Below are positions 14,172-61,268 of a stretch of DNA of 61,268 nucleotides, in pieces. The first letter of the stretch is position 1. Each line of letters starts with the position of its first letter. The stretch is from an uncultured archaeon. GTDB taxonomy: Archaea > Aenigmatarchaeota > Aenigmatarchaeia > QMZS01. The stretch covers positions 5,841 through 67,108 of the forward strand of contig CAZJKT010000002.1 in the NCBI GenBank assembly GCA_964547015.1. The letters run 5' to 3'. The position numbers and the translations under genes are program-made. The notes beneath the pieces were generated by a model that was not told the DNA's origin, made no database searches, and worked only from the letters and a program-made list of their open reading frames with translations.

Positions 14172-14431
14172 GCCCTGGTAGTCTAGTTCGGTCTAGGATA
14201 CAGGACTGTCAATCCTGCGACCCGGGTCAGACTTTCTTTCCTTATAGAAAGAAATTCCGGCGCCCCAAAGAAAGAAACAAATTTCGCAGAACAACCGTGT
14301 AAGGCGCAAGCCTCACATCAGGTGTACTTTGGGGTAAGAAGCCTCGTATAGCAAAAAAGCGTGTTTTGGCTGAAGCCTTTTTAGCCAAAATCTCGAAAAG
14401 GCTTCTGGGTATTCAAATCCCGGCCAGGGCG
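14172..14431 (+). tRNA. tRNA-Asp(GTC) interrupted by an insertion of about 185 nt in the T-loop (about position 53/54 or 54/55)
   Basis: Hand fold: acceptor GCCCTGG/CCAGGGC, D-stem GTCT/GGAT, anticodon arm CAGGA-CTGTCAA-TCCTG, variable CGAC, T-stem CCGGG (14222-14226) and CCCGG (14419-14423). The T-loop TTCAAAT is split by 14228-14412. Discriminator G; no encoded CCA. Confidence 0.75.
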
Positions 14432-19067: not shown

Positions 19068-19472
19068 CTATAACTTGTTATGAAATAGCGGGTCATCTTC
19101 AGGATAAATTGGCGGGAAACCATCTTTTTCATCACCAACAATAAGGCTATGCTCATTATCATAACCGCCCACCTCAATCCTTAGGTCATCTAAATGTAAA
19201 TTATAGGAGTTTAGAAGACTTTTATAGTAGCGGACCTCTTCTTCTGGATATAGGCGGATTAGCTCGGAATAGCTATTAATAACCGCCTCTGAATCACACA
19301 AGGCTCGGTTTAGTTTTATAATCGTATTGCTATCCTGAGGTTGGTTCTTTGCCTCTATAAGATATAGGTGTACCTGACGGAAGGACTGTTCAACTTTCCC
19401 CCCATAGGAGTTTAGATTATCTCTCAAAACCAATCCAGACAAGCCAGGGTCCTTTTCACGACTTTGAAACAT
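19068..19472 (-). CDS. hypothetical protein
   Basis: ORF with the SD-like AGGTGGT leader shared with 8143. No recognisable motif. Confidence 0.45.
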   Translation of the reverse strand: MFQSREKDPGLSGLVLRDNLNSYGGKVEQSFRQVHLYLIEAKNQPQDSNTIIKLNRALCDSEAVINSYSELIRLYPEEEVRYYKSLLNSYNLHLDDLRIEVGGYDNEHSLIVGDEKDGFPPIYPEDDPLFHNKL

Positions 19473-24706: not shown

Positions 24707-25552
24707 TTACCCTCTGCCTTTTGCGGCAGCCATTATCAGGTTCGTTATAAATTCAAGACCTCCTCGGCAATGACCCTTTAATGAGGGATCATACTCAGGC
24801 CGATACTCCCAGATGCCGAGCTTATCTATATCTAAAGTGCCTGCAATCCCTAAAACCTCCCTCTTTGTTGCCTTTGCAGGACCATCTGTCTCAGGATATA
24901 CCTTTTTATCTATCAACCTGTCCGTTCCGCCAAGACAATCTATATCTATATCCAGATGATTTGTGGACTGAGGCAATATAGTGCTATCGGCAGATCTTCC
25001 AAAAAGATGCTTATTCTCACATACAAAAAGATTATATACTTCTATATTTTTCAAATTATTCTCAACCCAATTAAGATAAGTTGCATAATTTGGAATTGTC
25101 CTTAATCCCTGGTCTGAATAATCTGCATGATAATCCATCCTGCAAACAACATCCCCGCCACCATATAAAAAAATCGCCCCTAAGTGGCTTGGGCCAATCA
25201 ATACCAATAAGCCATATTCTTTTGACAGTACCTGTATTTTCTCCCTATTGCTCTCAAAAGAGCCGTCCGCTACATCCAGAAAACGAATATTCTCTCTTTT
25301 TAAATAATTTCCCCAATAGGACAGAAATTTAGGGTTTTTAATTGTAGCCAGAGGATAAGGCTCGCCCAATTCAAGTTCACCCAAATCTTCAGCGTAGACC
25401 TCACGCTGTCTCAAATGCGGGATTATCTCTTTTCTTAAGGCGTCGGTAATGCCTGGCAAATATACTGTACGAGACATAGTGCCCCATTCAGGATGGTCAG
25501 TTATCCTTAAATCCTCAGCGGGAACACCTAAAATCCCAATAGACTTGACCAT
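24707..25552 (-). CDS. divergent ureohydrolase-fold (arginase/agmatinase-like) protein
   Basis: The ordered motifs GPSHL, CRMDYHADY, HLDIDIDCLGG and WEYRPEYDP resemble GGDHS, DAHxD, SxDxDxxDP and ExNP of the arginase family, but they are degenerate. Confidence 0.35.
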   Translation of the reverse strand: MVKSIGILGVPAEDLRITDHPEWGTMSRTVYLPGITDALRKEIIPHLRQREVYAEDLGELELGEPYPLATIKNPKFLSYWGNYLKRENIRFLDVADGSFESNREKIQVLSKEYGLLVLIGPSHLGAIFLYGGGDVVCRMDYHADYSDQGLRTIPNYATYLNWVENNLKNIEVYNLFVCENKHLFGRSADSTILPQSTNHLDIDIDCLGGTDRLIDKKVYPETDGPAKATKREVLGIAGTLDIDKLGIWEYRPEYDPSLKGHCRGGLEFITNLIMAAAKGRG

Positions 25553-32404: not shown

Positions 32405-33595
32405 TTAAGCGTCGATCTCTTTTTGTTTCCTTCTCCTAAGGATATTATTGACCTTGCTTTTTGCAATGGAAAGTTTTGACCCTTTATTTTTCATTTCTGC
32501 GGATTTTTGTATTTGGGATTCATACATTAAAAGAACTTTCTCAATCGTCTTGTCGGCTGAATGTTTTGACACCTCTTTTAGGCAAAGTTTTGAGAGCTTT
32601 TTTCGGTTGGCATACGCCAAATCTATTTTTCGGCTCAAGTCATCAATATTTCCGCTTTCATAAAGGTAGCCGGTCCTTGCATTTTTTATAGTTTCCTCAA
32701 GGGCCATTTCGCTCGCCCCGACAACCGGAGTCCCGCAAGCCATAGCTTCCAGTGCAACAAGCCCCTGGGTTTCGGCAATGGAAGGAAAAACAAATACATC
32801 AAGCGCAGAATAAAAAGCCCTCTGGTCTTCCTTGCTCAAAAAACCGAAAAAAGATATATTCTTTTTTCTCTTTGCAAGCCTTCGGTAATGGGCCTCAGCG
32901 GGCCCGTTCCCAATAATCACAATTTTTCCCTCAAACTTTCCGGAAACATTTATCAAATCCTCAAGCCTTTTTTCATGGCACAGCCTTCCGCAGTACCCTA
33001 TAAGCTTTTCATCGCCAATGCAGTATTTTTCCCTGAATAAATCCCTATCGACCGGCCGAAAAAAGTCCAGATCCACCCCGTTAGAGAGGACAACCGGATT
33101 TTTTATGCCTTTCTGTATGAGCCGTTTTTTTATGACTTTGGAGGGGCAGGTTACAATATCAAATGAATTAAGGAGCTTTCTTTCCCAAAGGTTATATAAC
33201 TTGGTAAGCCCTTTTTTGAGGGGCTTTCTTTTTGTAAGGTATCCCACATATTCGTCACCGGGTGTGTGGAATGTATGAAGCTTTGGGACTCCAAGCAATT
33301 TTGAAACATAAGCCCCCATTATCGCCTGCGAAAAAAGCCCATGGATATGGACAACATCAAGGCCCCTTGCATTTCTAAGGACCCATGAAGGGATTGCAAT
33401 TTTGTATCCCTCGTAATACCTAAATCCGACAGACCTTAAGGGAAACTCGTTTTTTTGCGGAACATATTCACCTGACGGGTAAAATAAAATGACCTCATGT
33501 CCCGCCTCTTCAAGCTTTCTTTTCCACAGATTGATTGTGTAGGTTACCCCGTTTATCTGCGGGAAATATGTGTCTGTAAAGATTCCAATTCTCAT
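32405..33595 (-). CDS. GT4-family glycosyltransferase
   Basis: MRIGIFTDTYFPQINGVTYTI... and the C-terminal E..G...LEAMACGTPVV motif fit GT4. Confidence 0.7.
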   Translation of the reverse strand: MRIGIFTDTYFPQINGVTYTINLWKRKLEEAGHEVILFYPSGEYVPQKNEFPLRSVGFRYYEGYKIAIPSWVLRNARGLDVVHIHGLFSQAIMGAYVSKLLGVPKLHTFHTPGDEYVGYLTKRKPLKKGLTKLYNLWERKLLNSFDIVTCPSKVIKKRLIQKGIKNPVVLSNGVDLDFFRPVDRDLFREKYCIGDEKLIGYCGRLCHEKRLEDLINVSGKFEGKIVIIGNGPAEAHYRRLAKRKKNISFFGFLSKEDQRAFYSALDVFVFPSIAETQGLVALEAMACGTPVVGASEMALEETIKNARTGYLYESGNIDDLSRKIDLAYANRKKLSKLCLKEVSKHSADKTIEKVLLMYESQIQKSAEMKNKGSKLSIAKSKVNNILRRRKQKEIDA

Positions 33596-33680
33596 ATTTT
33601 TAGGCTTTGGCCCATAATAAACCTAAAAAAGGCTATTCTAATATATATTGCAGGGGGTTTATTTAAATGATAATCGATTT

Positions 33681-34394
33681 ATGGAAATCTCGGTAATAAT
33701 CCCGACGCTAAATGAGGAGAAATATATTGAGGACTGCCTAAAGGCTATTTCTACTCAGGATTTTCCAAGGGAGAAATATGAGGTGATAGTATCTGACGGG
33801 GCGAGCACAGACAAAACCGCAAAGATTGCAAAAAAATATGCTGATAAGGTGGTTGTTTCAAAAAAAAGAGGGATTTGGTGGGGAAGGAATTATGGGGCGA
33901 AGTTTGCAAAAGGGAAATACCTTGTATTCATCGATGCGGACACTATTATTGACAGGGATTACCTTAAAACAGTCCACCCATACCTTGAGAGGGGATATAT
34001 TGGGGTTTCAACATATTTCAATTTTTCGGGCAAAACTAAAACAATCCGGATCGCAAACCAAGTCAGCAATATTTACTGGATACTCAGCGACGCCATCCGG
34101 AGAAAAGGGCTATTTGGATTCAATCTCTGCACCCCTCAAAAAATATTTGCCCGGGTTGGAGGCTTCAAGGATACCGACCTAGAAGATGTGAGGATGTATA
34201 GAGAGCTGTCAAAAGTCGGCAAGACGATAAGGTTACGGGAAAGGAAAGTAGTAACTTCATCTCGCAGACTGGAGAAATTCGGCTCTTGGGGAGCTTTAAG
34301 GTACTACATAGAACTATTTTACTTGGAGATAATACGATCAAAAGGTAAGAGTAAGGCAAGATTTCTCAAGTATGGGAGATATATAAAAACATAA
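33681..34394 (+). CDS. GT2-family glycosyltransferase (paralog A)
   Basis: ISVIIPTLNEEKYIEDCL...VSDGASTDKT...FIDADT. The first ATG is at 33681. Confidence 0.75.
   Translation: MEISVIIPTLNEEKYIEDCLKAISTQDFPREKYEVIVSDGASTDKTAKIAKKYADKVVVSKKRGIWWGRNYGAKFAKGKYLVFIDADTIIDRDYLKTVHPYLERGYIGVSTYFNFSGKTKTIRIANQVSNIYWILSDAIRRKGLFGFNLCTPQKIFARVGGFKDTDLEDVRMYRELSKVGKTIRLRERKVVTSSRRLEKFGSWGALRYYIELFYLEIIRSKGKSKARFLKYGRYIKT
33792..34013 (+). repeat. 222-bp segment about 93% identical to 35411-35632 (inside the GT2 paralogs)
   Basis: Hand alignment gives 15 mismatches in 222 nt, with an identical run of more than 50 nt. The flanking coding sequence is far more diverged. Confidence 0.85.
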
Positions 34395-34599
34395 AGTTCT
34401 GGAAAAACAAAAGGTATTTGGCTAGTCGGGAATAGTTAGGATACTCTCAGTCAGGACTACATTAGACGATGTGTTTATTTTCGGAGCAAGTTACCTCAAA
34501 ATATCTACAAACAAATTAGGTAATTCTTCATTTCTGGGGTTGAACCAAACCCCCTTTTGAAGAGCATATACTTTATAATTTCCCTGTTTACCTCGTGAT

Positions 34600-35230
34600 A
34601 TAATGAAGGGTGTATATAGGAGTACAAAACCAATTTTCAGATATTGGTAAGAATGCGGTTTGGGTTTCTTCTGGGCTTTCTAACAAAAACTTCATAAATA
34701 TTTGTGAAACTAATTACACCAATTATGTCCTATAATTATACCTGCAGAATATTTCCTCACAAAGCTCCAAAACTCTTCAATACCGTTTAGGCAGTTATGG
34801 ACATTCTCAAAACATCTTGCCTGCTCTATCCTGCTTTGCTTGCCATATAACCCCAAATCCTTGTAGGATTTGAAATAATCGGAGTAGTAGGCGGGCTAGT
34901 CTATACCCTCTAATATATAAATTAAAAAAATCTTGGCGGAAACATCTTCAACCAGGATTATAAAAATATTCTCTTGCATTCTAAAATGCCAAATACGGGC
35001 TGTTTGTTAGAGGTATCTTTTCCTCAACTTCCCTTTCTTCTGTCGCCAAAGTGAGATTCATCGGCATCTATGTAGCCACCGAATTTGGTGAAGTTTCTGT
35101 TTCAGTAAGCAGACAGTAACTTACTAAAAACAATCTACTTTCCTGACACGGCATTGCAACCTAGGTCTAACTCCTTAGCGCACTTGTACGCGCTAACCTC
35201 AAAATAAGCGAATTACAATAAAGAGAATAT
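34600..35230 (-). pseudogene. decayed IS1595-family (ISXO2-like) transposase remnant
   Basis: Minus-strand translation gives CAKELDLGCNAVSGK*, GGYIDADESHFGDRRKGKLRK, ARIWHFRMQENIFIILVEDVSAKIF, YYSDYFKSYKDLG and NCLNGIEEFWSFVRKYSAG...FHKYL*SFC*KAQKK. This is colinear with the HTH and DDE_Tnp_IS1595 domains but broken by several stops and frame changes. No ORF of 60 aa or more exists in 34395-35299. Boundaries are approximate. Confidence 0.65.
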
Positions 35231-35299
35231 GTTAAGAGAAGGGCTTGCTACCCCTAATCTGAAGCAATTACCATATATTATTATCTACCCTGTTCAGTT

Positions 35300-36016
35300 A
35301 TGGAGTTCTCAGTTATAATCCCTGCACTAAATGAAGAAAAATGCATTGAAAACTGCATCAACTCTGTCTTAAATCAAACCTACCCAAGAGACAGGTACGA
35401 GATTATTGTGTCTGACGGGGCGAGTAAAGACAAGACCGCAAAGATTGCAAAAAAATATGCTGATAAGGTGGTTGTTTCAAAAAAAAGAGGGATATGGTGG
35501 GGGAGGAATTATGGAGCGAAATTTGCAAAGGGGAAATACTTGGTATTCATCGATGCAGATACCATTATTGACAGGGATTACCTTAAAACAGTCCACCCAT
35601 ATCTTGAGAGGGGATATGTTGGGGTTTCAACAGGGTTTAGGTTCTCGGAACGAAACTTAAGAATAAGATTAATTGAGGGCTACCTTACCTTATTCTGGAA
35701 GATCGCCTCTGCAACAGGGTTCAAACAATTACTAGGTTTTAGCTTATGTATTCCAAAAAAGACATTCAAGGAAGTTGGGGGATTTAAGGATTTTTACATG
35801 GAAGACGCGATGATTAACAGAGACCTTAAAAAATTTGGAAAAATCAAATACATCTCTGAAAAGAAGGTAACCACCTCTCCAAGAAAATATGAAAAGCAAG
35901 GGTTCATCCTTGCGAGCCTGAGATATAATAAATGTGAAATAGTGGATATATTAAGGTCTAGGAGCAAGCTACTACACAAAAAACTATCATCAGAGAAATA
36001 TCTGGAAATCCGATGA
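35300..36016 (+). CDS. GT2-family glycosyltransferase (paralog B)
   Basis: FSVIIPALNEEKCIENCI...VSDGASKDKT...FIDADT; a paralog of 33681..34394. Confidence 0.75.
   Translation: MEFSVIIPALNEEKCIENCINSVLNQTYPRDRYEIIVSDGASKDKTAKIAKKYADKVVVSKKRGIWWGRNYGAKFAKGKYLVFIDADTIIDRDYLKTVHPYLERGYVGVSTGFRFSERNLRIRLIEGYLTLFWKIASATGFKQLLGFSLCIPKKTFKEVGGFKDFYMEDAMINRDLKKFGKIKYISEKKVTTSPRKYEKQGFILASLRYNKCEIVDILRSRSKLLHKKLSSEKYLEIR
35411..35632 (+). repeat. 222-bp segment about 93% identical to 33792-34013
   Basis: See 33792-34013. Confidence 0.85.
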
Positions 36017-36055
36017 TCGACTTAAATAACCTGTTTTAAATTATAACTTTAAGTT

Positions 36056-36874
36056 ATGAATATCGCACCTTACCTACGACTTATTCGGATGCCTCATTGG
36101 TGGGTTTACTTTGGGGTTGGAATTTATGGTCTGATACTTGCAGAAGGGCTTTTACAGCCCGCCATAGCCATACTTTTCCTTCTTACAACCCTTGCTTTTT
36201 ATCTCGCATTCAGTTTCTCAATAAACGAGTGTTTTGATGTAGCCGAAGACAAACTAAACCCAAAAAAGAAAAACCCTATTGCAAGAGGAAAAATCAGTTT
36301 CAAGAAAGCATACATCTATTCAATCCTTTTGGCATTATCGGGGATGATTATTTCTTCATATTTCGGGTCCACAACCCTAATTTATGTCACTGCAATGGCG
36401 GCAATAGCCTATTTCTATTCCGCAACCCCTTTAAGGTTAAAATCAAGGTTCCTGCTCGACATCTTTTCCCACGGACTTTTCTTTGGAGCGATGATATTTC
36501 TTCTCCCATTCGTCGCCTTTGGAAGCCCAATCGGGCATATAAACCTTATAATTGCGGCAACAATATTTCATCTCTCCCTTATATGGGAGATACGGAACCA
36601 TCTAAGCGACTACGAATCCGACAAAAAAGCAGACCTGAAAACTACAGTCTGCGTCCTTGGAAAAGGGAAATCTGAAAAGCTTTTTTGGTGGCTGGTCGCT
36701 TTATATCCCGTCTCCTTATTATTATTTCTCACCGAAATACAGGGGATTCTAATTGCTATTTATTTAATCGCTACAATTGCATACTATTTCCGGATTTTCC
36801 TCAAAAAAGAGGTAAACACAGAAATATATGCGGGAGTGATTTACTGTGCGTACTTATTGAGCATTATTATCTGA
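36056..36874 (+). CDS. UbiA-superfamily prenyltransferase (paralog 1)
   Basis: The Asp-rich motifs NECFDVAEDKLNPKKKNPIARG and NHLSDYESDKKADLKT, in a polytopic protein. Confidence 0.6.
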   Translation: MNIAPYLRLIRMPHWWVYFGVGIYGLILAEGLLQPAIAILFLLTTLAFYLAFSFSINECFDVAEDKLNPKKKNPIARGKISFKKAYIYSILLALSGMIISSYFGSTTLIYVTAMAAIAYFYSATPLRLKSRFLLDIFSHGLFFGAMIFLLPFVAFGSPIGHINLIIAATIFHLSLIWEIRNHLSDYESDKKADLKTTVCVLGKGKSEKLFWWLVALYPVSLLLFLTEIQGILIAIYLIATIAYYFRIFLKKEVNTEIYAGVIYCAYLLSIII

Positions 36875-37077
36875 ACGGTGTAAGGATTTGGTCTCCAAAG
36901 ACACCAACAAATATAAGGATTAAAAAATTTAAAATATGCCTAATTTTCAAAATAGGTTTCACTTTATATATAGTGCCCCCTCCTACTTTAAAGCTCCGAA
37001 TGCTATTGCAATACATAACCAAAAATCCGCCCTAGAGGGGGGGTATTTAGACAAAATAATTTATCTGTCCGTATATT

Positions 37078-37935
37078 ATGAACATTTTCTCAAAATACCT
37101 CAAAGTCATCCGATTCGAGAACTGGATGAGTCACCTATTCCTCAAGGCCATCCTGGGCGCAGTAATTGCCGGCGGAACTCTCCCTGAAATATTTTTGGTA
37201 GGTATAATCTACTTCTGCGTCCTTGGGTATGGCTTTCTCATAAACGACTATTACGATGTTGAAATTGACCGCCGCCATCTAGGAAAAATGAAAAAAAAGC
37301 AGAATACCATTGCTTCTGGAATTATCTCAAAAAGAAAAGCCAAGGCAATTCTTGCCTTTCTCGCCGCAACCCCGCTTTTATTAAGCTATTATATGAGCCA
37401 AATCGGATCTATTATAGTTCTTGTTGGAATAATAAGCTTTAGCGCATATTCGGCAAGAGGAATCCGGCTCAAGGAAAGGTTTGGCTTAGATATATTTTCG
37501 CACGGAATAATGTTCTCTTCATACTTTCTTGGCGGTGTGCTTCTTATAACCTCAGAGATATCATTTGGTATTGCCCTTTTGGCCGCAATTATGTTTCTAT
37601 GGAGCCAGGTTTCACTAATTGTCCACCAACTTAAAGATTATGAAGAGGACAAAAAATCCTCAAAGCACACAATTATAAAAATAGGCCTCAAAAAAGGCTG
37701 GGTCCTATTCATGTCCCACCTTCTTCTTATGGCCTTGGTAACCGAAGCGGGAATATTTTTTGGGCTAAACCCTCTTTTGCGGCTTCTCAGCTTATTCTAT
37801 ATAGCTTATGTTATCAGATACCATAATTATTCTGATTTTGGAAATAGCGTTTCGAGAGCTAAAACCGCAGACAAAATATATTGGGAAACCGCTACAGTAA
37901 GCATCCTCGGGACAGCTCTCCTTATATCTCTTTAA
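37078..37935 (+). CDS. UbiA-superfamily prenyltransferase (paralog 2)
   Basis: NDYYDVEIDRRHLGKMKKKQNTIASG and QLKDYEEDKKSSKHT, in a polytopic protein. Confidence 0.6.
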   Translation: MNIFSKYLKVIRFENWMSHLFLKAILGAVIAGGTLPEIFLVGIIYFCVLGYGFLINDYYDVEIDRRHLGKMKKKQNTIASGIISKRKAKAILAFLAATPLLLSYYMSQIGSIIVLVGIISFSAYSARGIRLKERFGLDIFSHGIMFSSYFLGGVLLITSEISFGIALLAAIMFLWSQVSLIVHQLKDYEEDKKSSKHTIIKIGLKKGWVLFMSHLLLMALVTEAGIFFGLNPLLRLLSLFYIAYVIRYHNYSDFGNSVSRAKTADKIYWETATVSILGTALLISL

Positions 37936-53055: not shown

Positions 53056-53111
53056 TGCGCTGGCAGGGATTACGATAATTGCGTTTATGCGCCAACCTGT
53101 AGTTATCCGGC
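53056..53111 (-). pseudogene. decayed copy of the 3' half of tRNA-Gly(GCC) (putative distal att repeat)
   Basis: The minus strand reads GCCGG-ATAACTA-CAGGT-TGGCGCATAAACGCAATTA-TCGTAATCCCTGCCAGCGCA. The intact tRNA reads GCCGG-CGAC-CCGGG-[intron]-TTCGAATCCCGGCCAGCGCA. The last 16 nt match 15/16, in the same orientation. Confidence 0.6.
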
Positions 53112-53140
53112 ATGTTTAATAAACATTATCAACCGGGGGC

Positions 53141-54286
53141 TTAAACTAGCGTTCTCACGGCCCATTCCGTAAAATCCTTGAAAAAGCTGCACTTTTCAGG
53201 ATCATTTACCAGTTGACCGCAATTGGCATGCCTCTTCATGCTTTGCATCGGGCAAATGCCTCCACAGATAAAAACCGCAATGCAGTCCCTGCAACTTTCG
53301 TTATCCAAAACAGACCTTGAAAACCAGTTTTGCAGACTCTCTGAGTCTAAGTCTTTTCTGGATCTCAAAGTTTCATCGAATATGTCCCTGCCAAAATAGA
53401 TAGTGCAGTAGCCAAGTCTGCCATCCGCAGTGACAACAAGCGTGGCGGTATCAAAGTCCGAGGCGCAGGTTCTTAGAGCAGTAGATTGATATTTTAGTGC
53501 GCTGACGACCTGGGAAGCCGGAGAATTCAGCTTAATTCCTTCCTTTTCGCAAAAAAGAAGGACACTTTTCATTTTTTCCGAAAACAATTTTCCATTTACG
53601 CCCCAGCCATAGTCGTACTGGGGCCTATTGACCGTCAGCGAATCCGGTTTAAGTTCCAATACAGCCCACCTGCAAATTTTATCCAAATTATTCAGAGTCG
53701 CCTCCGAAGGGGTAATTAGTATAAAGTTCTCGACTTCGTTTGACTTAAGCAGATTAAAGCCTTTCAATGAAACTTCAAACGTGCTTCTGCCGTCGGAAAA
53801 CCTTCGATTCATATCATTTACTTCCCTGGGGCCGTCAAGCGAAACGCCCACCCGAAAGTTGTGCTTCTTAAAATACCCGACTTTATCATCGTCTATGAGG
53901 GAGCCATTTGTAGTAATATGATACTTTGGAATCAAATCGCCTTTATTTGAATCTACATAATCCACAGACCTTTGAATGATATCGAACTTCAGCAATGGCT
54001 CTCCTCCAAAAAAGTGGATGTGTATTCCTTTATCTTTGGCATCTTTGTTATGCCTTATGAGCAATTCAAGGGCTTTCCTTAAGGAATCCCAATCCAACTC
54101 TCCCTCCAATTTTTTTGGAGATTCAAAGCAATAAGTGCAATTGTAATTACATTTTTCAGTCAAAACCAATCTGAGATGATTCACCCTCACTTTTGAATGC
54201 TTGACCTGTGCCAGCCTATCTATAAAGAATTCATCTTCCGAGAAATCGGCATCCACAAGAAGGCCATTTTCAACCAGAAAGTCCAA
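53141..54286 (-). CDS. radical SAM enzyme with a complete C-terminal SPASM domain (peptide-maturase type)
   Basis: CNYNCTYCF (CxxxCxxC). SPASM motifs: C-x14-G-x4-C (CASDFDTATLVVTADGRLGYC), CRDCIAVFICGGIC (Cx2Cx5Cx3C), and a further Cys. The only available start is TTG, which is in frame with the upstream small ORF across one TAA. Confidence 0.8.
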   Translation of the reverse strand: MDFLVENGLLVDADFSEDEFFIDRLAQVKHSKVRVNHLRLVLTEKCNYNCTYCFESPKKLEGELDWDSLRKALELLIRHNKDAKDKGIHIHFFGGEPLLKFDIIQRSVDYVDSNKGDLIPKYHITTNGSLIDDDKVGYFKKHNFRVGVSLDGPREVNDMNRRFSDGRSTFEVSLKGFNLLKSNEVENFILITPSEATLNNLDKICRWAVLELKPDSLTVNRPQYDYGWGVNGKLFSEKMKSVLLFCEKEGIKLNSPASQVVSALKYQSTALRTCASDFDTATLVVTADGRLGYCTIYFGRDIFDETLRSRKDLDSESLQNWFSRSVLDNESCRDCIAVFICGGICPMQSMKRHANCGQLVNDPEKCSFFKDFTEWAVRTLV

Positions 54287-54292
54287 AGTCTC

Positions 54293-54478
54293 TTAGGCCA
54301 TAACAGATTTTCCAAGATTATCCGGGCATATTGCCTGTGATTTCTCAAAGCACTTCAGTAGCTTTTTTAATTCTTTGTCACATGAATAAATTGATAGATA
54401 TGTTCTATGGAATAGAATACAACCATCACCCTTATCGAATATTCTCACAAACGGAGAAAGCTTAAAATTTCTCCCCAT
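54293..54478 (-). CDS. small protein, possibly a PqqD/RRE-like peptide-recognition module (or the detached N-terminus of the SPASM enzyme)
   Basis: MGRNFKLSPFVRIFDKGDGCILFHRTYLSIYSCDKELKKLLKCF resembles the beta-strands plus helix at the start of PqqD-like domains. It is in frame with 53141..54286. The alternative start at 54508 overlaps the upstream gene. Confidence 0.35.
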   Translation of the reverse strand: MGRNFKLSPFVRIFDKGDGCILFHRTYLSIYSCDKELKKLLKCFEKSQAICPDNLGKSVMA

Positions 54479-55844
54479 GACCCTTTGATCTTTGCCTTTG
54501 CTCTTCATAATACCTATATGACTTTCTCTCCAAGGCTTCCTGAATACACCTGAATAAATCAGTAAATTCTTCCCTATCCATCTCGCGCGTCAAAATCGGT
54601 CTGCCTCTAAATGGATCCTCTCCCGCCTCAATCTTATGATGCAGGTAGGTCGCATAGCCAGACCAATTTACGGTATTAGGATCAATAATTCCGCTTGCTA
54701 CCGCATAATCCCAGAGTTTTGTGCCGGGAAAAGCCAATACGGGGCTAACCCAACCGGTATCCAGTGGCTCTTCCTCAATAAATCTGATTGTATCTTGCAG
54801 GTCCTGCTTGGTCTCAAATGGAGACCCTGCCATAAAGCCAGAAGCCACTCTTATCCCATTATCCTTACATACCCTTATTGCCTTACGATTATCCTCGACA
54901 GAAACGGTATTGTTTTTAAGATATCCCAGGGTTCTATCGGATCCGGTCTCGAAGCCAAAAACTATAGAGATTACATTCATATCCCCGAGATACTGAGCCG
55001 TCTCATTATCCATAGTATCTGCTCTCGAAAAGCATCCAAACATAGCCTCTTTATCCAAGCCTCTTTCTTTAATCAGAGCGCTAATCTTTTTGACCCTCGG
55101 TTTACTCAGAGCAAAATTGTCATCAAAAAATAAGACCGAGTCTATGCCGTATTTGTTTACAAGTTCCTCCACTTCACCGACCACATATTCAGGCGAAAAG
55201 TATCTGACCTTGTTTCCCCAAAATGCAGAACTTGCGCAATATTTGCACGAATGGGGGCACCCTCTTGAACTGATGATTTGTGTTTCCCTCGCAATCCTCC
55301 CCGTATCGCTCTGGATGGGCTGCGCATAATATGCCATGTCGAAGAGATCTCTGTTCGGATATGGTATCGCATCCAGATTAGAGATAACTTCCCTTTTATC
55401 TGTAGTTTTGATATATCCGGCTTCGTCCCTAAATGAAATGCCCTTTATCTTTCCAAGATTGGTGACCTCTCCATCATGAGTGTTATTGAGGATATCTAAA
55501 AATGTTCTTTCGCCTTCTCCTTTAACCACGATGTCGATATACTCCTCAAAACCGTTCCAAGCGCTATAATGGGTGCCACCAACGATAAGGGGCTTTCCGA
55601 GATCTTCCCGGTTTTTCCTGGCAAAATCCTGCAGCAAACCATGCTCCATCGTCAAGCATGAGACACCGATCAGATCCGGGTCATAGGCCGAAACATCAGA
55701 ATACATATTTTTTGAGGTGGCTGCGTCATGAATCCTGATATCCAGATTCCTCGGATAATATTTCTGCGCATAAGAAGCCAGGTATCCTAAACCCAACTTT
55801 GGATATCTGGACTCGGGGTTCAAATTTATTAAAGAAACCTTCAT
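54462..55844 (-). CDS. B12-binding-domain radical SAM enzyme (class B)
   Basis: An N-terminal Rossmann-like B12-binding region (MKVSLINLNP...LGLGYLASY...DLIGVSC), then SSRGCPHSCKYCAS (CxxxCxxC). Confidence 0.75.
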   Translation of the reverse strand: MKVSLINLNPESRYPKLGLGYLASYAQKYYPRNLDIRIHDAATSKNMYSDVSAYDPDLIGVSCLTMEHGLLQDFARKNREDLGKPLIVGGTHYSAWNGFEEYIDIVVKGEGERTFLDILNNTHDGEVTNLGKIKGISFRDEAGYIKTTDKREVISNLDAIPYPNRDLFDMAYYAQPIQSDTGRIARETQIISSRGCPHSCKYCASSAFWGNKVRYFSPEYVVGEVEELVNKYGIDSVLFFDDNFALSKPRVKKISALIKERGLDKEAMFGCFSRADTMDNETAQYLGDMNVISIVFGFETGSDRTLGYLKNNTVSVEDNRKAIRVCKDNGIRVASGFMAGSPFETKQDLQDTIRFIEEEPLDTGWVSPVLAFPGTKLWDYAVASGIIDPNTVNWSGYATYLHHKIEAGEDPFRGRPILTREMDREEFTDLFRCIQEALERKSYRYYEEQRQRSKGHGEKF

Positions 55845-55848
55845 AGGG

Positions 55849-56613
55849 CTATACCTCTACGGGAAAATCAACGAATCTTATATCTAAAGAGAACTTTTTC
55901 TCAAGCGGTTCCTTTAATGCACTGATGCCTACAGTTTCGGTTGCATGATGCCCCGCATCTATCAAATTCAGTTTGGCTTCTTTGGCAACAAGATACTCCG
56001 CAAGGCGGGCATCCCCTCCTATGAAAACATCCACTTTGCTTTTTACGGCTTCATTTACCAGATGCCCGGATGCTCCTGAACTGAACGCAATGGATTTTAC
56101 CTTTGCCTTTCCCAAAGGGAAAACTTTACAGTGGGCATTCAGCACCTTATTGACCCTATCAGCAAACTTGTTAAGATCTTCCTCCTTGGCCAACTCTCCG
56201 ATATAGCCTAGTGGAGAATCCCCATACATATAAAATGGCTTTTTGATGGCCATGTCCATTTTCCTGAAAAACTGTACTGCGTTGCTTATCTCAGGATGTA
56301 TATCTAGAGGTATATGTGCGCCGTATAGAGAGATACCATTATCCAAAAGTATTTTGATCCTGTTTTTCATAACTCCAGTCACCGGTTCGGAGTTGGTTGA
56401 AAACATTCCATGGTGAACGATTACAATATCGAACTTCTCTTCAGCGGCGTACTCAAAAGTTTCCTGTGAGGAATCTACTGCCAAGAGAATCTTTTTAACC
56501 TCGGGCTTACCTTCAACCAATAAACCATTCAGCAGATATGGGTCTCTAACTGCATTTATCCTGAAATATCCGTCCAGGAATCCTACGACCTCTGCCAATC
56601 GTGCCATAATCAA
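55849..56613 (-). CDS. NIF3-family (YbgI / 'GTP cyclohydrolase 1 type 2') dinuclear-metal protein
   Basis: The DPYLLNGLLVEG...ILLAVDSS...DIVIVHHG and ...DAGHHATE motifs fit NIF3. Confidence 0.75.
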   Translation of the reverse strand: MIMARLAEVVGFLDGYFRINAVRDPYLLNGLLVEGKPEVKKILLAVDSSQETFEYAAEEKFDIVIVHHGMFSTNSEPVTGVMKNRIKILLDNGISLYGAHIPLDIHPEISNAVQFFRKMDMAIKKPFYMYGDSPLGYIGELAKEEDLNKFADRVNKVLNAHCKVFPLGKAKVKSIAFSSGASGHLVNEAVKSKVDVFIGGDARLAEYLVAKEAKLNLIDAGHHATETVGISALKEPLEKKFSLDIRFVDFPVEV

Positions 56614-56647
56614 AAACTACCGATTATTTATATAGGTGAGAACTATT

Positions 56648-56716
56648 ATGGAAATAGCAAAGAAAGAAGTAAAAATGGGGTCAGTAGATGCCACAAGGAA
56701 TTGCGGGTCTATCTAA
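56648..56716 (+). CDS. unlisted 22-aa ORF MEIAKKEVKMGSVDATRNCGSI (candidate precursor peptide)
   Basis: Hand translation. GGTGA lies 9-13 nt upstream of the ATG. The stop codon TAA is 20 nt before the radical-SAM ATG at 56737. The ORF is too short for the ORF track. Confidence 0.35.
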   Translation: MEIAKKEVKMGSVDATRNCGSI

Positions 56717-56736
56717 ATGTTTTATTTTAGGTTTTT

Positions 56737-57630
56737 ATGGTTCATCATTCTTTAAAGAGCCCGTTTGTTATATTATCCAGCAAATGCAATCTAAACTGCA
56801 AATATTGTTTCTATAATCAAAACAAGGACCGGAATAACCTCGAATTAGATTCTAATGTCCTGGTCGATTTCCTGTCATTTAATTCAGGTATCATAAAAGA
56901 TATTATTCTCACCGGAGGAGAGCCTTTTATGTATAAAGATATCTATGTCCTATTAGATGCTCTTTCCAATAGCAATATCAAGGCACGAATAAACTCAAAC
57001 CTAACCGTTCTGGACAAACGAAAATTGACAAGAAACTTGGGGATTTTGTCCAGAGTAGACACTACGATAGACCACATTGATCCGGAGATAAATGACAAAA
57101 TCAGAGGATTTTCTGAAAAGACTATGTCTAACTTAAGATGGTTCAAATCCAAGAATATACCCCTAGAGATTACGATTCCCTTGTCAAAGAAGAACTGCTT
57201 TGATATAGAAAGAATCTATCTCGAACTGCGCAAACTTAAGCCTAAAGAGATTTTTATACAGCCGGTTGATATCTTCACCAAATCACTTGATGAAGACTAC
57301 AGCTTAGCTTCGCTTGGAAAAGCCGAGCTAAAAATTATACTGGACCGGTTGAAGCCCTGGGCAAGGGATTATCATCGCACAAGAGAATTGGGATTAATGA
57401 GAAACTATTATCTTAAAGATAAGTTTCCTGAAGGGGATTGCCAAATGAAAAAAGATCTGTTTGTTATCGACTCTGACGGCGCAGTCTATCCGTGCTTTCA
57501 CAGGCACGATCTCCGCTGCGGAAATATCTACTCGGATCCTCCTAAATCGATTATGGATGATTTAGCAATAAAACAGAACTCAATTGACATTAAAAAGTGT
57601 TTTGGTCCAAAATGCATTCCCCTATTCTGA
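56737..57630 (+). CDS. radical SAM enzyme with a twitch/partial-SPASM C-terminus
   Basis: CNLNCKYCF, GGEP, and the C-terminal C-x12-G-x4-C (CQMKKDLFVIDSDGAVYPC) plus CFGPKC. Confidence 0.75.
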   Translation: MVHHSLKSPFVILSSKCNLNCKYCFYNQNKDRNNLELDSNVLVDFLSFNSGIIKDIILTGGEPFMYKDIYVLLDALSNSNIKARINSNLTVLDKRKLTRNLGILSRVDTTIDHIDPEINDKIRGFSEKTMSNLRWFKSKNIPLEITIPLSKKNCFDIERIYLELRKLKPKEIFIQPVDIFTKSLDEDYSLASLGKAELKIILDRLKPWARDYHRTRELGLMRNYYLKDKFPEGDCQMKKDLFVIDSDGAVYPCFHRHDLRCGNIYSDPPKSIMDDLAIKQNSIDIKKCFGPKCIPLF

Positions 57631-58401
57631 CAGGAGCTCCCGTATTTTCTGCACATCCGCATCAATTATTATTTCTTCGAATATTTTCCCGAGTTCCTTG
57701 GAAGCCAGAGTAGGATCACCTAATATGCCATTGGGCGAAAATTCTTTTACATCTCCCTTCTCAAGAAGTTCCTTATGATCAAAGGGTTTTGTCCTGCCCG
57801 CAACTATTTTGCTCTTTCTCACCTTTTCAGGACACCTATATAGCATAGCAGAAGTTTCGTGCAGGCAGGCGTGGCATGAATGTAACCGGCAATCATCTAA
57901 TCTGTTTCCGAGGAATTTTCTTGCGGCGGTATCGACCAGATCATCGAAATCATCTAATCTCACAAAAATAATTTTGGCAGAAACATTTTCTCGGATTCCC
58001 TTCAAAGCATTCTCGATGGGCCCCATATTGCCTCCGTGGGTGGTTATTATGATTATATTTCTAAATCCATGCTTGTCCAGAGATATACAAACTTCCCGAA
58101 GAACCTGTTGAAACGTTTTTTCTGTCAAGCTTATAGTACCCGGAAAGCTCATATGATATTTCGAGCAGCCTAGAGACAATACCGGAGCCACCAAGGCATT
58201 GCCTAATTTATGCGCCACGCCTCTGGCGATAATATATGCATCAAGTGTGTCAGTATTTAACGGCAAATGCGGTCCATGCTGCTCCATTGCGCCTATCATC
58301 ACTAAAACATTCTTCTTACCCCCATCCATCTCATTTTTTATCTCTTCCCAAGTCATATCTTCTATGAACATTTTCTCACACCAATGGGAACATGACGACA
58401 T
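57622..58401 (-). CDS. creatininase-family amidohydrolase (MftE/ArfB-like)
   Basis: GAMEQHGPHLPLNTDT, TTHGGN and HACLHETS are the metal-binding motifs of the creatininase family. The likely start is MFIEDMTWEEI at 58371. Confidence 0.75.
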   Translation of the reverse strand: MSSCSHWCEKMFIEDMTWEEIKNEMDGGKKNVLVMIGAMEQHGPHLPLNTDTLDAYIIARGVAHKLGNALVAPVLSLGCSKYHMSFPGTISLTEKTFQQVLREVCISLDKHGFRNIIIITTHGGNMGPIENALKGIRENVSAKIIFVRLDDFDDLVDTAARKFLGNRLDDCRLHSCHACLHETSAMLYRCPEKVRKSKIVAGRTKPFDHKELLEKGDVKEFSPNGILGDPTLASKELGKIFEEIIIDADVQKIRELLSE

Positions 58402-59599
58402 CGCGAATATCTGCCTTCCCGGATAGATTCTGAATCATCCGGTCTATACCCAAGCCGAGCCCTCCGGTTGGAGGCATACCATAAAGTAGAGCTTCTCTGA
58501 ATGAGGAATCATATCTTTTTTGGTCTTTATCCCTTGAAGCCATTTGGCCTTCTTCCAATTTGGAAATAGTATCATAATCCGTCTCAACAGTGTAGCCATG
58601 AAAGATATCTACCCCATTAAGATACAGCCTAAATTCCTCCGAATAGATTTTATCAGAACTCTTGGCTAGGGGACATACTTCCAAAGGAAAATCATAAATT
58701 AGGGTTGGTGATGCCAGTTTTGGCAAAACCTGTCGACGAAATTCGACAAAACGCTCTGTGGGATTCTTAAAAGAGTGTCCTACCTCTTCCATAACACCTT
58801 CGAACGAGAACCTCTTGACCGGACTATTTATACCAAATATCGGAGAAACGTGAGCGAATAGAGTTTCTGAGAGATCCATCATATCATAATAATTTGAATA
58901 AGCCTTGAAAATATCCATTTCTAAAAACTCGGGAAGATATCCTTTAGATAATCCTTCGTTCCTATATACAGGCCCCACTTCATATATCTTCTCCAATCCC
59001 CCTATAATCAACAGCTTTAATTTTGGCTCAAGTGCCTTTCTCAAATAAACTTCTCTATCCTTAGCCAACCATTTTGCGGAGAACTCATTTGATTTTGAAG
59101 AGTAACTCTTGCTGAGAAGTGTTGGTGTGGACACCTCCAGATAACCTTCTTCGGACATCACATTCCTAAGAATTGCCAGAGCTTTCGACCTTTTCTTAAA
59201 CAGATCAAGCGTATCTGAATTCATCATAATCGATTCATGGGTATTGGCTCGGTTGGCTGGATTATTAAAATAGCCTGTGTTTGGAAGAAGTTTACCTGAT
59301 CTTTCAATCACACTAAGTTCGGTGATATCTAAATAAGGAAGTCCGTTCTTTCCATTATACACCCTGCCTTTAACTTCTACAAGGTCCCCATTTTTTACTT
59401 CGGGAGGTAATTCTAATCCATCTATGGAATGCCTCATCCTCAGCCCGCCAGATTCGTTGTTTAGGAAGTAATAATGAATCTCTTTGCTGGATCTATTTGA
59501 AGACACTATTCTTCCCTGAGCCAAAACCTCCTCGGCAGAAATCTCTCCACTCAAAAAGTGGGCTGCGCTGACAGTCAGCCCATCTTTTAACCCTATCAT
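58376..59599 (-). CDS. shortened, divergent class II lysyl-tRNA-synthetase-like protein
   Basis: OB-fold (GDLVEVKGRVYNG...LDITELSVI), motif 1 (RSKALAILRNVMSEEGYLEVSTPTL), motif 2 (YRNEGLSKGYLPEFLEMDIFKAY), and the LysRS-type motif 3 (ALLYGMPPTGGLGLGIDRM...IRDVVMFP). It is 407 aa, against about 500 for typical LysRS-II. Confidence 0.7.
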   Translation of the reverse strand: MIGLKDGLTVSAAHFLSGEISAEEVLAQGRIVSSNRSSKEIHYYFLNNESGGLRMRHSIDGLELPPEVKNGDLVEVKGRVYNGKNGLPYLDITELSVIERSGKLLPNTGYFNNPANRANTHESIMMNSDTLDLFKKRSKALAILRNVMSEEGYLEVSTPTLLSKSYSSKSNEFSAKWLAKDREVYLRKALEPKLKLLIIGGLEKIYEVGPVYRNEGLSKGYLPEFLEMDIFKAYSNYYDMMDLSETLFAHVSPIFGINSPVKRFSFEGVMEEVGHSFKNPTERFVEFRRQVLPKLASPTLIYDFPLEVCPLAKSSDKIYSEEFRLYLNGVDIFHGYTVETDYDTISKLEEGQMASRDKDQKRYDSSFREALLYGMPPTGGLGLGIDRMIQNLSGKADIRDVVMFPLV

Positions 59600-59680
59600 A
59601 CTTATAAATTCTTAGTAAATAATTATATGCTACTTCCTTTGAATTATTATTATTGACAGCGCATCAATAAAAATATGATT

Positions 59681-59883
59681 TGCGCTGGCCGGGATTCGAA
59701 AACCCTTTCCAACGCCAAAATTGCAGTAAATTTTGCGCGAAGCGCGAATCTGCTTTCTTTGACGTAAAGGACTTTCTTTTGCAAAGAAAGTCTTTTCCCG
59801 GGTCGCCGGCTTGGCAAGCCGGTATCATAGCCAATGTCCTAAGACCAAAATCATGGGATTTTGGCTATCTAGACGACCAGCGC
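59681..59883 (-). tRNA. tRNA-Gly(GCC) with a 96-nt T-loop insertion (about position 53/54) and about 33 extra nt in the D-arm region
   Basis: Hand fold of the minus strand: acceptor GCGCTGG/CCAGCGC, anticodon arm CCGGC-TTGCCAA-GCCGG, variable CGAC. T-stem CCGGG (59801-59797) and CCCGG (59693-59689); T-loop TTCGAAT (59700-59694); insertion 59796-59701. The D region reads GTCTAG-[AUAGCCAAAAUCCCAUGAUUU]-UGGUCUUAGGAC-A-[UUGGCUAUGAU]. Discriminator A. Confidence 0.7.
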
Positions 59884-59927: not shown

Positions 59928-61268
59928 ATGGAGATTACGGCCACAGCAGAGCTCAGGATCGCTTTTTCAGAAGAATTAGGCGTGCAGGCCTCATCTCGGA
60001 TACTTGAAAAAATCAAAAAGCATTCGGGGCCCAATTACCAAAGCGGGGTCTACACAGCAGGGCGGTTTTTTTTAGTATTGCAGGGAGATGAGGAATTGTC
60101 CTGCCTTATATTGTCCCTTGTAAAAAACATATCCGAATGGATAAGAGATTACCGGATTGGGCTAAGAGATTACTACATCCCAAATTATGAAATTAGCTTT
60201 GAGTGCGACCATGTCGGAAAGCTGGATATCCCACACACAGAAACAGTTATCTGCAACGGAAAGGAATGCAAGGCTGTTTTCAAAGACATTGAAAAGGACT
60301 TCTTAAAAAGCGGAGGGGTGAAAAGAATAATTTGCCTTATTCTCTCAAAAACTTCAGGCAAGAAATGGGGTATGGTAGCCCAACCCCAAAGTCCCCCTGC
60401 GCAAGGGCCAAACCCCTACGAAGAAGTTGAAAGCCTCCGGCTTGCAAAAAAAGGCCTTACCAAAGGGGAATATTTCTATCGGCCACGGGGCATGAAAATG
60501 CTTTTGGAAATAAAAAAAAGCGTTCGTCGGGAATTTGCTTCATTCGGATTGGAGGAATATTTCCCGACCACCTACACAAACTTCAGGGCCCTTGAAAAAA
60601 AAGGGCTTATCGAAATATTGCCTCCCGAAACCTTTTTTCTTCTTGCATCTGAACCAATTGACGCCGCAAAGGCTTATGAGCAATACTATCTCAAGGGCAA
60701 AGTCCCCCCCATCCCGCAAAAGCCCAAAGGGGCGATATACCACGAAATACCTTTCAATCTTTACCATGCCCTGCAAAAAACCCGCATAAAAAATCCCCAC
60801 TACCTCTACACACTCCAAAATTCAAAAATGCTAGTAACTTTCTTCGAGAAAGAGGGAAATTACGCTTCGGCTAAAGAGGCGATTTTGGAAAAGCTAAAAT
60901 CCCTATGCAACGGGCACGGGCTTTCATTTCGAATTATTTCGCGGCCGCTTAATGGGGAAATTCTGCGTTTCCAGTGCCTTCTCCCCCACAATAAAACATG
61001 GCTTACCGTTGCCGAAGCCTACTTTTCTGAAAGCCACTATACCCGGCCCTTTAAAATCCGCGGCATGAGCGGCCAAGTAAACATAAGCCTGGAAAATATT
61101 TTGCTCTCCCTCATCGGACAGGGGCTGCCAAAAAAAGAAAAATTATTGGGGCCCGAAACGGAAATCAAATTCCATGAAGACCCCTTGCCCGAAGAATCAA
61201 CAGATATAGAGGACAGTAAACCTCCCCCCAGCAAGCCGGGGGGCTTCAACTATCTTATAAATTCCTGC
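59928..61268 (+). CDS. large unlisted ORF, 447 codons open to the window end; faint class II aaRS-like core without canonical motif 2/3 arginines
   Basis: I translated it codon by codon from the ATG at 59928 and found no stop through 61268. It is absent from the track, presumably because it has no stop. KGEYFYRPRGMKMLLEIKKSVRREFASFGLEEYFPT..NFRALEKKG...PETFFL resembles aaRS motif 1 and its surroundings. PFNLYHALQK...NPHYLYTL and GQVNISLENILLSL resemble the motif 2/3 regions, but the Arg residues are missing. Confidence 0.6.
   Translation, partial: MEITATAELRIAFSEELGVQASSRILEKIKKHSGPNYQSGVYTAGRFFLVLQGDEELSCLILSLVKNISEWIRDYRIGLRDYYIPNYEISFECDHVGKLDIPHTETVICNGKECKAVFKDIEKDFLKSGGVKRIICLILSKTSGKKWGMVAQPQSPPAQGPNPYEEVESLRLAKKGLTKGEYFYRPRGMKMLLEIKKSVRREFASFGLEEYFPTTYTNFRALEKKGLIEILPPETFFLLASEPIDAAKAYEQYYLKGKVPPIPQKPKGAIYHEIPFNLYHALQKTRIKNPHYLYTLQNSKMLVTFFEKEGNYASAKEAILEKLKSLCNGHGLSFRIISRPLNGEILRFQCLLPHNKTWLTVAEAYFSESHYTRPFKIRGMSGQVNISLENILLSLIGQGLPKKEKLLGPETEIKFHEDPLPEESTDIEDSKPPPSKPGGFNYLINSC

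Follow-up and report, generated by a model that had tools for sequence, protein, structure and literature searches.

We describe here a 6.6-kb interval (53112-59680) of an archaeal contig which lies between a tRNA-Gly(GCC) gene and a decayed copy of the 3' portion of that gene and which, in a view that we hold with somewhat better than even confidence, is the remnant of DNA integrated site-specifically into the 3' part of tRNA-Gly(GCC). The interval belongs to a 61,268-nt stretch (referred to below as the window) of contig CAZJKT010000002.1 of assembly GCA_964547015.1, whose source is, judged by its sequence, a sparsely sampled DPANN archaeon of Aenigmatarchaeota-like affiliation. It is probably an old, immobilised tRNA-targeted island, i.e. 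a degenerate remnant rather than an integrative element. The two features that bound it are:

59681-59883, minus strand: tRNA-Gly(GCC) gene interrupted by two non-canonical introns, which would be the intact tRNA on the attL side (exon 1, 59883-59868; intron 1, 59867-59834; exon 2, 59833-59797; intron 2, 59796-59701; exon 3, 59700-59681)
53056-53111, minus strand: decayed 3' portion of tRNA-Gly, the proposed attR-side remnant (solid core, 53071-53056)

The minus strand of the tRNA gene (59883 to 59681) reads GCGCTGGTCGTCTAGA[34 nt]TGGCTATGATACCGGCTTGCCAAGCCGGCGACCCGGG[96 nt]TTCGAATCCCGGCCAGCGCA, the D-loop being interrupted by intron 1 (34 nt) and positions 53 and 54 of the tRNA being separated by intron 2 (96 nt). 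No tRNA was called in the raw 61-kb window by ARAGORN, with or without its anticodon-intron option, or by Rfam at gathering and permissive thresholds; both programs miss tRNA-Gly because of its two non-canonical introns. Once both introns had been removed by hand in silico, the remaining 73 nt were recognised by ARAGORN as a perfect tRNA-Gly(gcc). Six other lineages (L006, L008, L009, L010, L011 and L012) have this gene as well, interrupted at the same two sites and beside the same neighbour gene. Aligned across all seven lineages, the gene shows no exon differences, and its introns have diverged, with 17 predicted intron pairs kept through changes on both sides. The ARAGORN call on the spliced 73-mer, the invariant exons and the covarying introns establish that this is a real, doubly interrupted gene under selection, and thus that a functional tRNA gene stands at one boundary of the interval. 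The initial annotation had listed an intact tRNA-Gly at this place; its coordinates were right, and the gene is intact only after removal of the two introns.

At the other boundary, 6.6 kb downstream of tRNA-Gly, on the same strand and in direct orientation, the minus strand from 53111 to 53056 reads GCCGG-ATAACTA-CAGGT-[19 nt = TGGCGCATAAACGCAATTA]-TCGTAATCCCTGCCAGCGCA. The final 16 nt (53071-53056) match the 3' end of tRNA-Gly at 15 of 16 positions; this reading, its coordinates and the match agree with those first reported for the site. Read in order, the fragment consists of GCCGG as the 3' strand of the anticodon stem, an expanded variable region, CAGG(T) as the 5' strand of the T-stem, 19 nt inserted at the 53/54 intron position, TCGTAAT as a defective T-loop, CCCTG as the 3' strand of the T-stem, CCAGCGC as the acceptor strand, and the discriminator A. 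The nearest gene on the outer side, encoding a family 4 glycosyltransferase (GT4), has its stop at 53040, and 15 nt separate this stop from the end of the fragment.

The similarity is far from random. A search of the window with AATCCCKGCCAGCGCA, allowing at most two mismatches, gave three matches against 0.12 expected, and this count was reached in none of 100 shuffled sequences (a shuffling test of this kind had been suggested in the initial annotation and was run here on the window). The three matches are tRNA-Gly, the distal fragment and the 3' end of a tRNA-Asp-like gene (14416-14431); no further copies of the repeat were found within the window. On the basis of base composition, the expected number of 16-mer matches with at most one mismatch is 5.8e-4 for the window, 3.3e-5 for a 7-kb stretch of the same strand and 0.011 for a genome of 1.2 Mb. 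The 16-mer statistics uphold the earlier proposal that the fragment derives from tRNA-Gly, downstream of it and in direct orientation.

The colinear part upstream of the core is weak, as the combination of GCCGG with a four-of-five complement of CCCTG within 3-9 nt, a pattern defined post hoc, is found in 0.63% of native 60-mers. Its homology is indicated by three properties. The fragment begins at tRNA position 39, directly past the anticodon loop; its 19-nt insert falls exactly at the 53/54 T-arm intron site of the lineage; and the change of the T-stem from CCGGG/CCCGG to CAGG./CCCTG is a double one that preserves pair 50-64 (C-G to A-T). This pair-preserving change suggests that the fragment was once part of a working tRNA allele. 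In its present form it is predicted to be non-functional as part of a tRNA, because the T-arm is broken: pair 53-61 is T·C under any parse, and the T-loop reads TCGTAAT. The variable region is 7 nt long, and Rfam gave no tRNA match for the fragment at E-values up to 10. The trailer of the fragment (GACTTCAAAAT) resembles the tRNA trailer of L009 (GATTTCCAAAAT), and that of the intact tRNA differs; this likeness would fit the island model but is too short and too T-rich to count.

The DNA between the two tRNA sequences has a distinct composition. The initial annotation had named a composition indistinguishable from the flanks as an argument against an island, and the interval proved instead to be the most deviant stretch of the window. 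Its GC content is 0.411 (window mean, 0.433), and its strand-symmetrised tetranucleotide distance is 0.255 compared with a mean of 0.144 (standard deviation, 0.027) for all 6.6-kb windows, which places it first of 110. The tetranucleotide profile in 3-kb steps peaks at 54-60 kb and drops at both ends. For synonymous codons, the pooled G of the six enclosed genes is 231, and sets of six genes that do not overlap the interval range from 35 to 103 (e.g. GAT, 76% in the interval vs 48% in the rest; TAT, 82% vs 56%; CTT, 19% vs 41%).

It should be borne in mind that third codon positions in the window show a strand asymmetry, plus-strand genes being NNC-rich and minus-strand genes NNT-rich. This strong strand effect inflated the first codon test, since five of the six genes lie on the minus strand. 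When only minus-strand genes were compared, G was 153.5 against 50 +/- 13 for 2000 random same-strand sets (maximum, 123), and in a leave-one-out likelihood test the five minus-strand genes of the interval ranked 2, 3, 5, 6 and 8 of 29. The codon usage of the flanking GT4 and seryl-tRNA synthetase (SerRS)-like genes is host-like. The compositional anomaly is genuine, if moderate, and its limits coincide with the repeats.

As regards the strand asymmetry itself, the NNC share of two-fold pyrimidine codons is 41-72% in plus-strand genes and mostly 15-43% in minus-strand genes (one reaches 0.70), and the cumulative GC skew declines steadily along the window; such a pattern can confound codon-based island tests.

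The enclosed genes and their immediate flanks, in order from the tRNA end, are:

59928-61268, plus strand: SerRS-like protein with a tRNA_bind_4 domain, divergent from tRNA-Gly; the gene runs off the window end
58376-59599, minus strand: class II lysyl-tRNA synthetase (LysRS)-like protein of 407 aa (Pfam tRNA-synt_2; NCBIfam LysRS below cut-off), the first gene past the tRNA
57622-58401, minus strand: creatininase-family protein, closest to the MftE-type peptidase (Pfam Creatininase, 5e-63; NCBIfam MftE, 1e-41, below cut-off)
56737-57630, plus strand: radical S-adenosylmethionine (rSAM)/SPASM protein of 297 aa (Pfam and NCBIfam scans)
55849-56613, minus strand: NIF3/YbgI-family dinuclear metal protein (Pfam, 4e-54; NCBIfam above cut-off)
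54462-55844, minus strand: B12-binding rSAM protein of 460 aa (Pfam and NCBIfam scans)
53141-54508, minus strand: rSAM/SPASM peptide-maturase-like gene, split by one in-frame TAA
51769-53040, plus strand: GT4 glycosyltransferase, a host-like flanking gene convergent on the distal fragment

The gene content given in the initial annotation (radical SAM, creatininase and LysRS-like genes only) was correct for the genes that it named and omitted the NIF3 and B12-binding rSAM genes; its statement that no integrase lies inside is confirmed by Pfam and NCBIfam scans of the open reading frames (ORFs) of the interval. Beyond the interval lie the GT4 gene, a hypothetical gene, Spt5 and Kae1 on one side and the SerRS-like gene on the other. 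In type, the set of rSAM proteins, which resembles those acting on ribosomally synthesised and post-translationally modified peptides (RiPPs), and the orphan LysRS-like protein are accessory, and NIF3 is a core gene in other genomes.

The gene of the LysRS-like protein starts 81 nt downstream of tRNA-Gly, and the protein scores under every NCBIfam cut-off. No homologue with more than 34% identity was found among 5.8 billion proteins; most of the best hits listed carry no source name, and those that do are bacterial LysRS. Matches to this protein on plasmids are ordinary lysS genes (approximately 30% identity). It could be either the LysRS of the cell or a paralogue with another substrate. The IMG/VR database held no relative of the LysRS-like or MftE-like protein and no exact copy of the distal arm; the 3'-exon pattern had one exact match there, in a metagenome-assembled genome (MAG) of a giant virus.

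The homologues of the NIF3 protein show at most 44% identity, and those with a named source come from one DPANN archaeon and one bacterium. They are found in housekeeping contexts, in one case between the L2 and S19 genes of a ribosomal-protein operon, and in no case with rSAM genes or the remainder of the cassette. Elsewhere the six genes thus do not form a conserved cassette, and NIF3 at least is of a kind usually seen as core. The initial annotation had also envisaged the same cassette beside other tRNAs; the gene set was found neither there nor anywhere else.

The maturase-like gene is composed of a 71-aa N-terminal ORF (54508-54293) and a 381-aa catalytic ORF (54286-53141). The shorter ORF, which is in the same frame and a single TAA apart, supplies the N-terminal part that is otherwise missing and looks like the peptide-binding part of such enzymes. 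The locus could be read either as a nonsense-mutated gene or pseudogene, or as a two-piece enzyme. The break reads ...GKSVMA*ETLDFLVENGLL..., and its sequence is the same across all conspecific contigs.

The gene set can be compared with rSAM/SPASM RiPP clusters that follow the mycofactocin (MftC/MftE) logic, in which, as here, a SPASM maturase stands beside a creatininase-family peptidase, with a B12-binding rSAM protein added in the present case. It differs from the mycofactocin type in that the NCBIfam scores, other than that of NIF3, fall far under the family cut-offs (MftE, 143 bits vs a cut-off of 172; the rSAM proteins, far under every equivalog cut-off), no precursor peptide was found in the interval, LysRS-like and NIF3 proteins are present, and the maturase carries an in-frame stop.

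Exact-protein look-ups with the LysRS-like and GT4 sequences retrieved 23 conspecific contigs from many samples, all with the same layout. Samples in which the organism occurs include SRR10872669, SRR10872671, SRR12613930, ERZ27252303, and JGI 3300033161 and 3300033163. The five LysRS-like loci that were aligned (L001-L005) are 99.99-100% identical to the window, and the block is fixed in the sampled population. Relatives are few. A scan of the genome collection with the intron-bearing tRNA pattern gave one MAG only (Candidatus Aenigmatarchaeota JBNGEE010000016.1, locus L009), and a metagenome scan with a profile of the neighbour gene gave eight loci, none of them syntenic beyond the tRNA. The SerRS-like neighbour is 48-51% identical to its counterparts in L006-L012. 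In these distant relatives only the SerRS-like/tRNA-Gly pair has been kept, with no other counterpart within 10 kb on either side (as compared with the window and the extended contig L001). Since synteny is lost on both sides, the change of gene content right past the tRNA is no evidence by itself.

Two of the relatives bear on tRNA-Gly as a target. In L009, two 55-nt tandem repeats stand directly past tRNA-Gly, and beyond them CTTCGAATCCCGGCCAGCGCAGATTT occurs once more in identical form and with the same trailer (coordinates 86-193 and 40-59), this second 3'-exon copy being placed 142 nt past tRNA-Gly. The repeats contain GTTAAGTTTACTTTGGGGT, which is the 3' helix strand of the T-arm intron of L010 and also of the tRNA-Asp intron of the window. 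The whole structure is situated 39 nt from the contig end and may be an att scar or an assembly artefact. In L010, the first 9.7 kb past the tRNA contain genes for HEPN/MNT, MazE, a D12 methylase next to a ParB-like phage-family protein, and a Bro-N protein. The second copy of L009 and the defence- or mobile-element-type cargo of L010 are suggestive of tRNA-Gly as an integration site.

Several other observations were made around this gene. The divergent pairing of the SerRS-like gene and tRNA-Gly was seen in every relative found, though all other gene order is lost. The SerRS-like protein (431 aa) matches the methanogen-type SerRS weakly and has two relatives (approximately 50% identity) among the 5.8 billion proteins. 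About 40 nt between tRNA-Gly and the following gene are conserved in L006, L012 and L008. The ORF directly past tRNA-Gly in L006 and L012 (MAIDLYHADRNL...; L006 1-198 and L012 1-70, both minus strand) was considered as the N-terminal domain of a tyrosine recombinase and was rejected, as it had no match in Pfam, PHROGs, the 5.8-billion-protein set or PDB.

We observe directly the tRNA gene, a non-random repeat of its 3' end, the genes of the interval with their deviant composition, and the fixed state of the block; we infer from the layout of the fragment, its orientation, start point and statistics, together with the coincident compositional anomaly, an integration event, its direction and the present genes as its cargo. 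In archaea, integrated elements are well documented that have a complete tRNA copy at one end and a partial copy at the other (PMC9897764). In the present case, integration would have rebuilt a functional tRNA beside the conserved SerRS-like neighbour and, at the far end beside the GT4 gene, produced another copy of the tRNA 3' portion that was not under selection. That copy would have spanned the region from the anticodon-stem 3' strand to the discriminator, with a vestige at the 53/54 intron site, and would since have decayed save for a stretch of about the size of exon 3. Loss of the recombinase would have rendered the block immobile, with subsequent fixation in the sampled population. The cargo would be a peptide-modification (RiPP-like) set (two rSAM/SPASM proteins, a B12-binding rSAM protein and an MftE-like peptidase) plus the orphan LysRS-like and NIF3 proteins.

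The event would be old, considering the lack of an integrase, the short and degenerate repeat, the fixation, the nonsense codon in the maturase gene and the presence of NIF3; the element would be dead and may be mosaic. The model predicts an empty site (attB) that joins tRNA-Gly ...CCAGCGCA without interruption to GACTTCAAAATTTATTTAAATTCCGG and the 3' terminus of the GT4 gene (in other terms, tRNA-Gly and then GACTTCAAAATTT...GT4, or exon 3 joined to the GACTTCAAAA... flank), as well as a circle junction (attP) reading ...CGCAATTATCGTAATCCC[T/G]GCCAGCGCA joined to AATCATATTTTTATTG.

Several results weigh against this integration. No empty site and no presence/absence polymorphism was found: the block is carried by all 23 conspecific contigs, the relatives lack synteny, and the arrangement that the initial annotation had recommended looking for (tRNA-Gly followed directly by the GT4 gene) was not encountered. 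Pfam and NCBIfam scans of all ORFs of the interval revealed no domain linked to mobility (integrase, excisionase, recombinase, transposase or other), no mobility gene lies beside the interval, and the gaps between genes, at most 175 nt in length, are too short to conceal the remnant of a recombinase. The part of the repeat that can be taken as reliable is 16 nt with one mismatch, approximately the size of exon 3, and the remainder is weak; an unguided local alignment of the whole gene with the distal site scores 30, with a background of 28-29. With strand taken into account, the deviation in codon usage is moderate and equally island-like values are seen for three ordinary genes; low expression could contribute to the deviation, and the baseline for composition is the 61-kb window, a part of the genome. 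NIF3 is normally a single-copy core gene, its closest matches being located in a ribosomal-protein operon or among housekeeping genes, and neither a donor nor a second instance of the gene set was found in the searches of the 5.8 billion proteins, plasmids and IMG/VR.

Many of these points would also be expected if the fragment were a real relic of tRNA-Gly that has nothing to do with six native genes, having been left by a lost older element or by a local duplication or rearrangement; the odd codon usage would then reflect low expression and unusual protein families. We consider this possible, though rather unlikely. The core character of NIF3 elsewhere, the absence of an integrase from the interval scans, the fixed state of the block and the scrambling of gene order everywhere in the lineage all suit it, as do the third-position strand effect that inflated the first codon test and the several ordinary genes that, with strand controlled, are as deviant as those of the interval. 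What speaks against it is the coincidence of the compositional anomaly with the tRNA-to-fragment interval, an anomaly which by two measures exceeds every other in the 61 kb and survives the control for strand. The orphan LysRS-like protein with its bacterial-type nearest hits also argues against native genes, and the fragment has exactly the orientation and position of an att scar. A different origin for the fragment, which we find quite improbable, is an intron-linked, integrase-independent duplication of 3' exons behind T-arm introns, of which the window fragment and the L009 duplicate would both be products. It might proceed by recombination between homologous bulge-helix-bulge (BHB) introns of different tRNA genes, or by reverse splicing and retro-insertion. 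The well-kept part of the repeat begins at or near the intron 2/exon 3 junction both in the window and in L009, the L009 spacer repeats contain the T-arm intron helix strand GTTAAGTTTACTTTGGGGT common to L010 and the window tRNA-Asp, and homologous 53/54 introns are common to tRNA-Gly and tRNA-Asp. No such mechanism is established for BHB introns, however, and it would leave unexplained the 6.6 kb of compositionally deviant genes between the copies. Moreover, the window fragment reaches into exon 2 (GCCGG...CAGG), which fits an anticodon-side att site, and the L009 arrangement, so near to its contig end, is possibly an artefact of assembly. The broader idea that a 3' exon behind a 53/54 intron acts as a recombination module, copied with intron-derived sequence in an integrase-independent way and creating boundaries that capture foreign DNA, is in our opinion a little more doubtful still.

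Split and tri-split tRNA genes exist in Nanoarchaeum equitans and Caldivirga maquilingensis, and split tRNAs are usually divided just past the anticodon loop. The fragment could accordingly be imagined as a working gene for the 3' half of a split (trans-spliced) tRNA, like those of N. equitans or the tri-split tRNA-Gly of Caldivirga: it starts just past the anticodon loop, it stands far from the 5' portion, and its host is a DPANN archaeon with heavily disrupted tRNA genes. We rejected this very improbable reading on T-arm anatomy, as the fragment lacks a canonical T-arm: the G53-C61 pair is absent after any plausible excision of the 19-nt insert, the T-loop is TCGTAAT instead of TTCRAAT, and the variable region is 7 nt long. 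In addition, neither a second 5' half (GCGCTGG...) nor a complementary leader was found in the 61-kb window, the fragment lies 30 nt past the stop of a coding sequence without a properly spaced promoter, and it lacks a match in Rfam even at the permissive E-value. Chance similarity, to which the shortness of the exactly matching stretch and the near-background score of an unguided alignment might point, is effectively refuted by the expectations of 3.3e-5 in the relevant span and 0.011 per genome, the colinear upstream features (passed by 0.63% of native 60-mers) and the failure of all 100 shuffles to reach the observed count.

If it is an old integration into tRNA-Gly, the locus belongs beside known tRNA-targeted islands of archaea, such as PYG1 of Pyrococcus yayanosii (tRNA-Gln, 44-bp direct repeats) and the elements of Thermococcaceae (PMC9897764). 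It is like them in that the enclosed DNA has an atypical composition and carries genes that, NIF3 apart, are accessory in type. Unlike theirs, its repeat is 16 nt with one mismatch plus weak traces, compared with 40-50 identical bp, and the block measures 6.6 kb as against 9-23 kb, lacks an integrase, and is fixed and to all appearances immobile. The target also differs, being a tRNA with two non-canonical introns, so that the repeat is approximately its 20-nt 3' exon.

Classes of integrase att sites according to their sublocation in tRNA genes were reportedly defined by Williams in 2002 (cited in PMC9897764). The fragment resembles the anticodon-loop type in extending from just past the anticodon loop to the discriminator; the comparison yields neither a crossover point nor an integrase subfamily.

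The tRNA gene, rather than the island, has its own parallels. Multiple non-canonical BHB introns and intron transposition have been described for Thermoproteales and ARMAN (context in PMC5829648), and here too introns occupy the D-loop and position 53/54 and homologous introns are common to tRNA-Gly and tRNA-Asp. The present case differs from those systems in concerning an Aenigmatarchaeota-like lineage, seen through sequence data alone. Non-canonical introns in this lineage fit the picture of DPANN and TACK tRNA genes served by splicing endonucleases of broad specificity (PMC5829648).

The window contains a second tRNA gene that ARAGORN and Rfam did not detect, a tRNA-Asp(GTC)-like gene (14172-14431, plus strand) whose intron, about 170 nt in length, occupies position 53/54. 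Both the start of this intron (TCAGACTTTCTTTCC...CCCCAAAGAAAGAAA) and the ACTTTGGGGTAAG motif within it have homologues in the tRNA-Gly T-arm introns of L011 and L010, and one intron family appears to be common to these different tRNA genes. The sole Rfam match at the gathering threshold is SNORA17 (32801-32923, minus strand; 36.4 bits, E = 0.0024), which is probably an archaeal H/ACA guide RNA. Two minus-strand genes, 24707-25552 (GC content at third positions, 0.36) and 19068-19472, both without a Pfam domain, have codon usage as atypical as that of the interval genes. A low-GC stretch (0.38-0.40) with deviant tetranucleotides at 33648-37935 (plus strand) holds two GT2 glycosyltransferase genes and two UbiA prenyltransferase genes beside a GT4 gene and looks like a surface-glycosylation cluster.

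To conclude, nothing categorically new is described here. The layout is a textbook one and the present case is degenerate; it constitutes a weakly supported further example of a familiar arrangement, from a poorly sampled phylum, and the gain in knowledge is incremental. Neither the tRNA nor the fragment is seen by standard tRNA finders, so that a search for islands which starts from tRNA calls would be unsuccessful in lineages of this kind. If the integration reading is true, the target tRNA is itself interrupted by two introns, and the repeat consequently approximates a single 20-nt exon. The peptide-modification set and the orphan LysRS-like protein would then be probable acquired accessory functions, and the locus would represent a case of tRNA-targeted gene acquisition in a DPANN archaeon, a group with tiny genomes in which the routes of gene gain are poorly documented.

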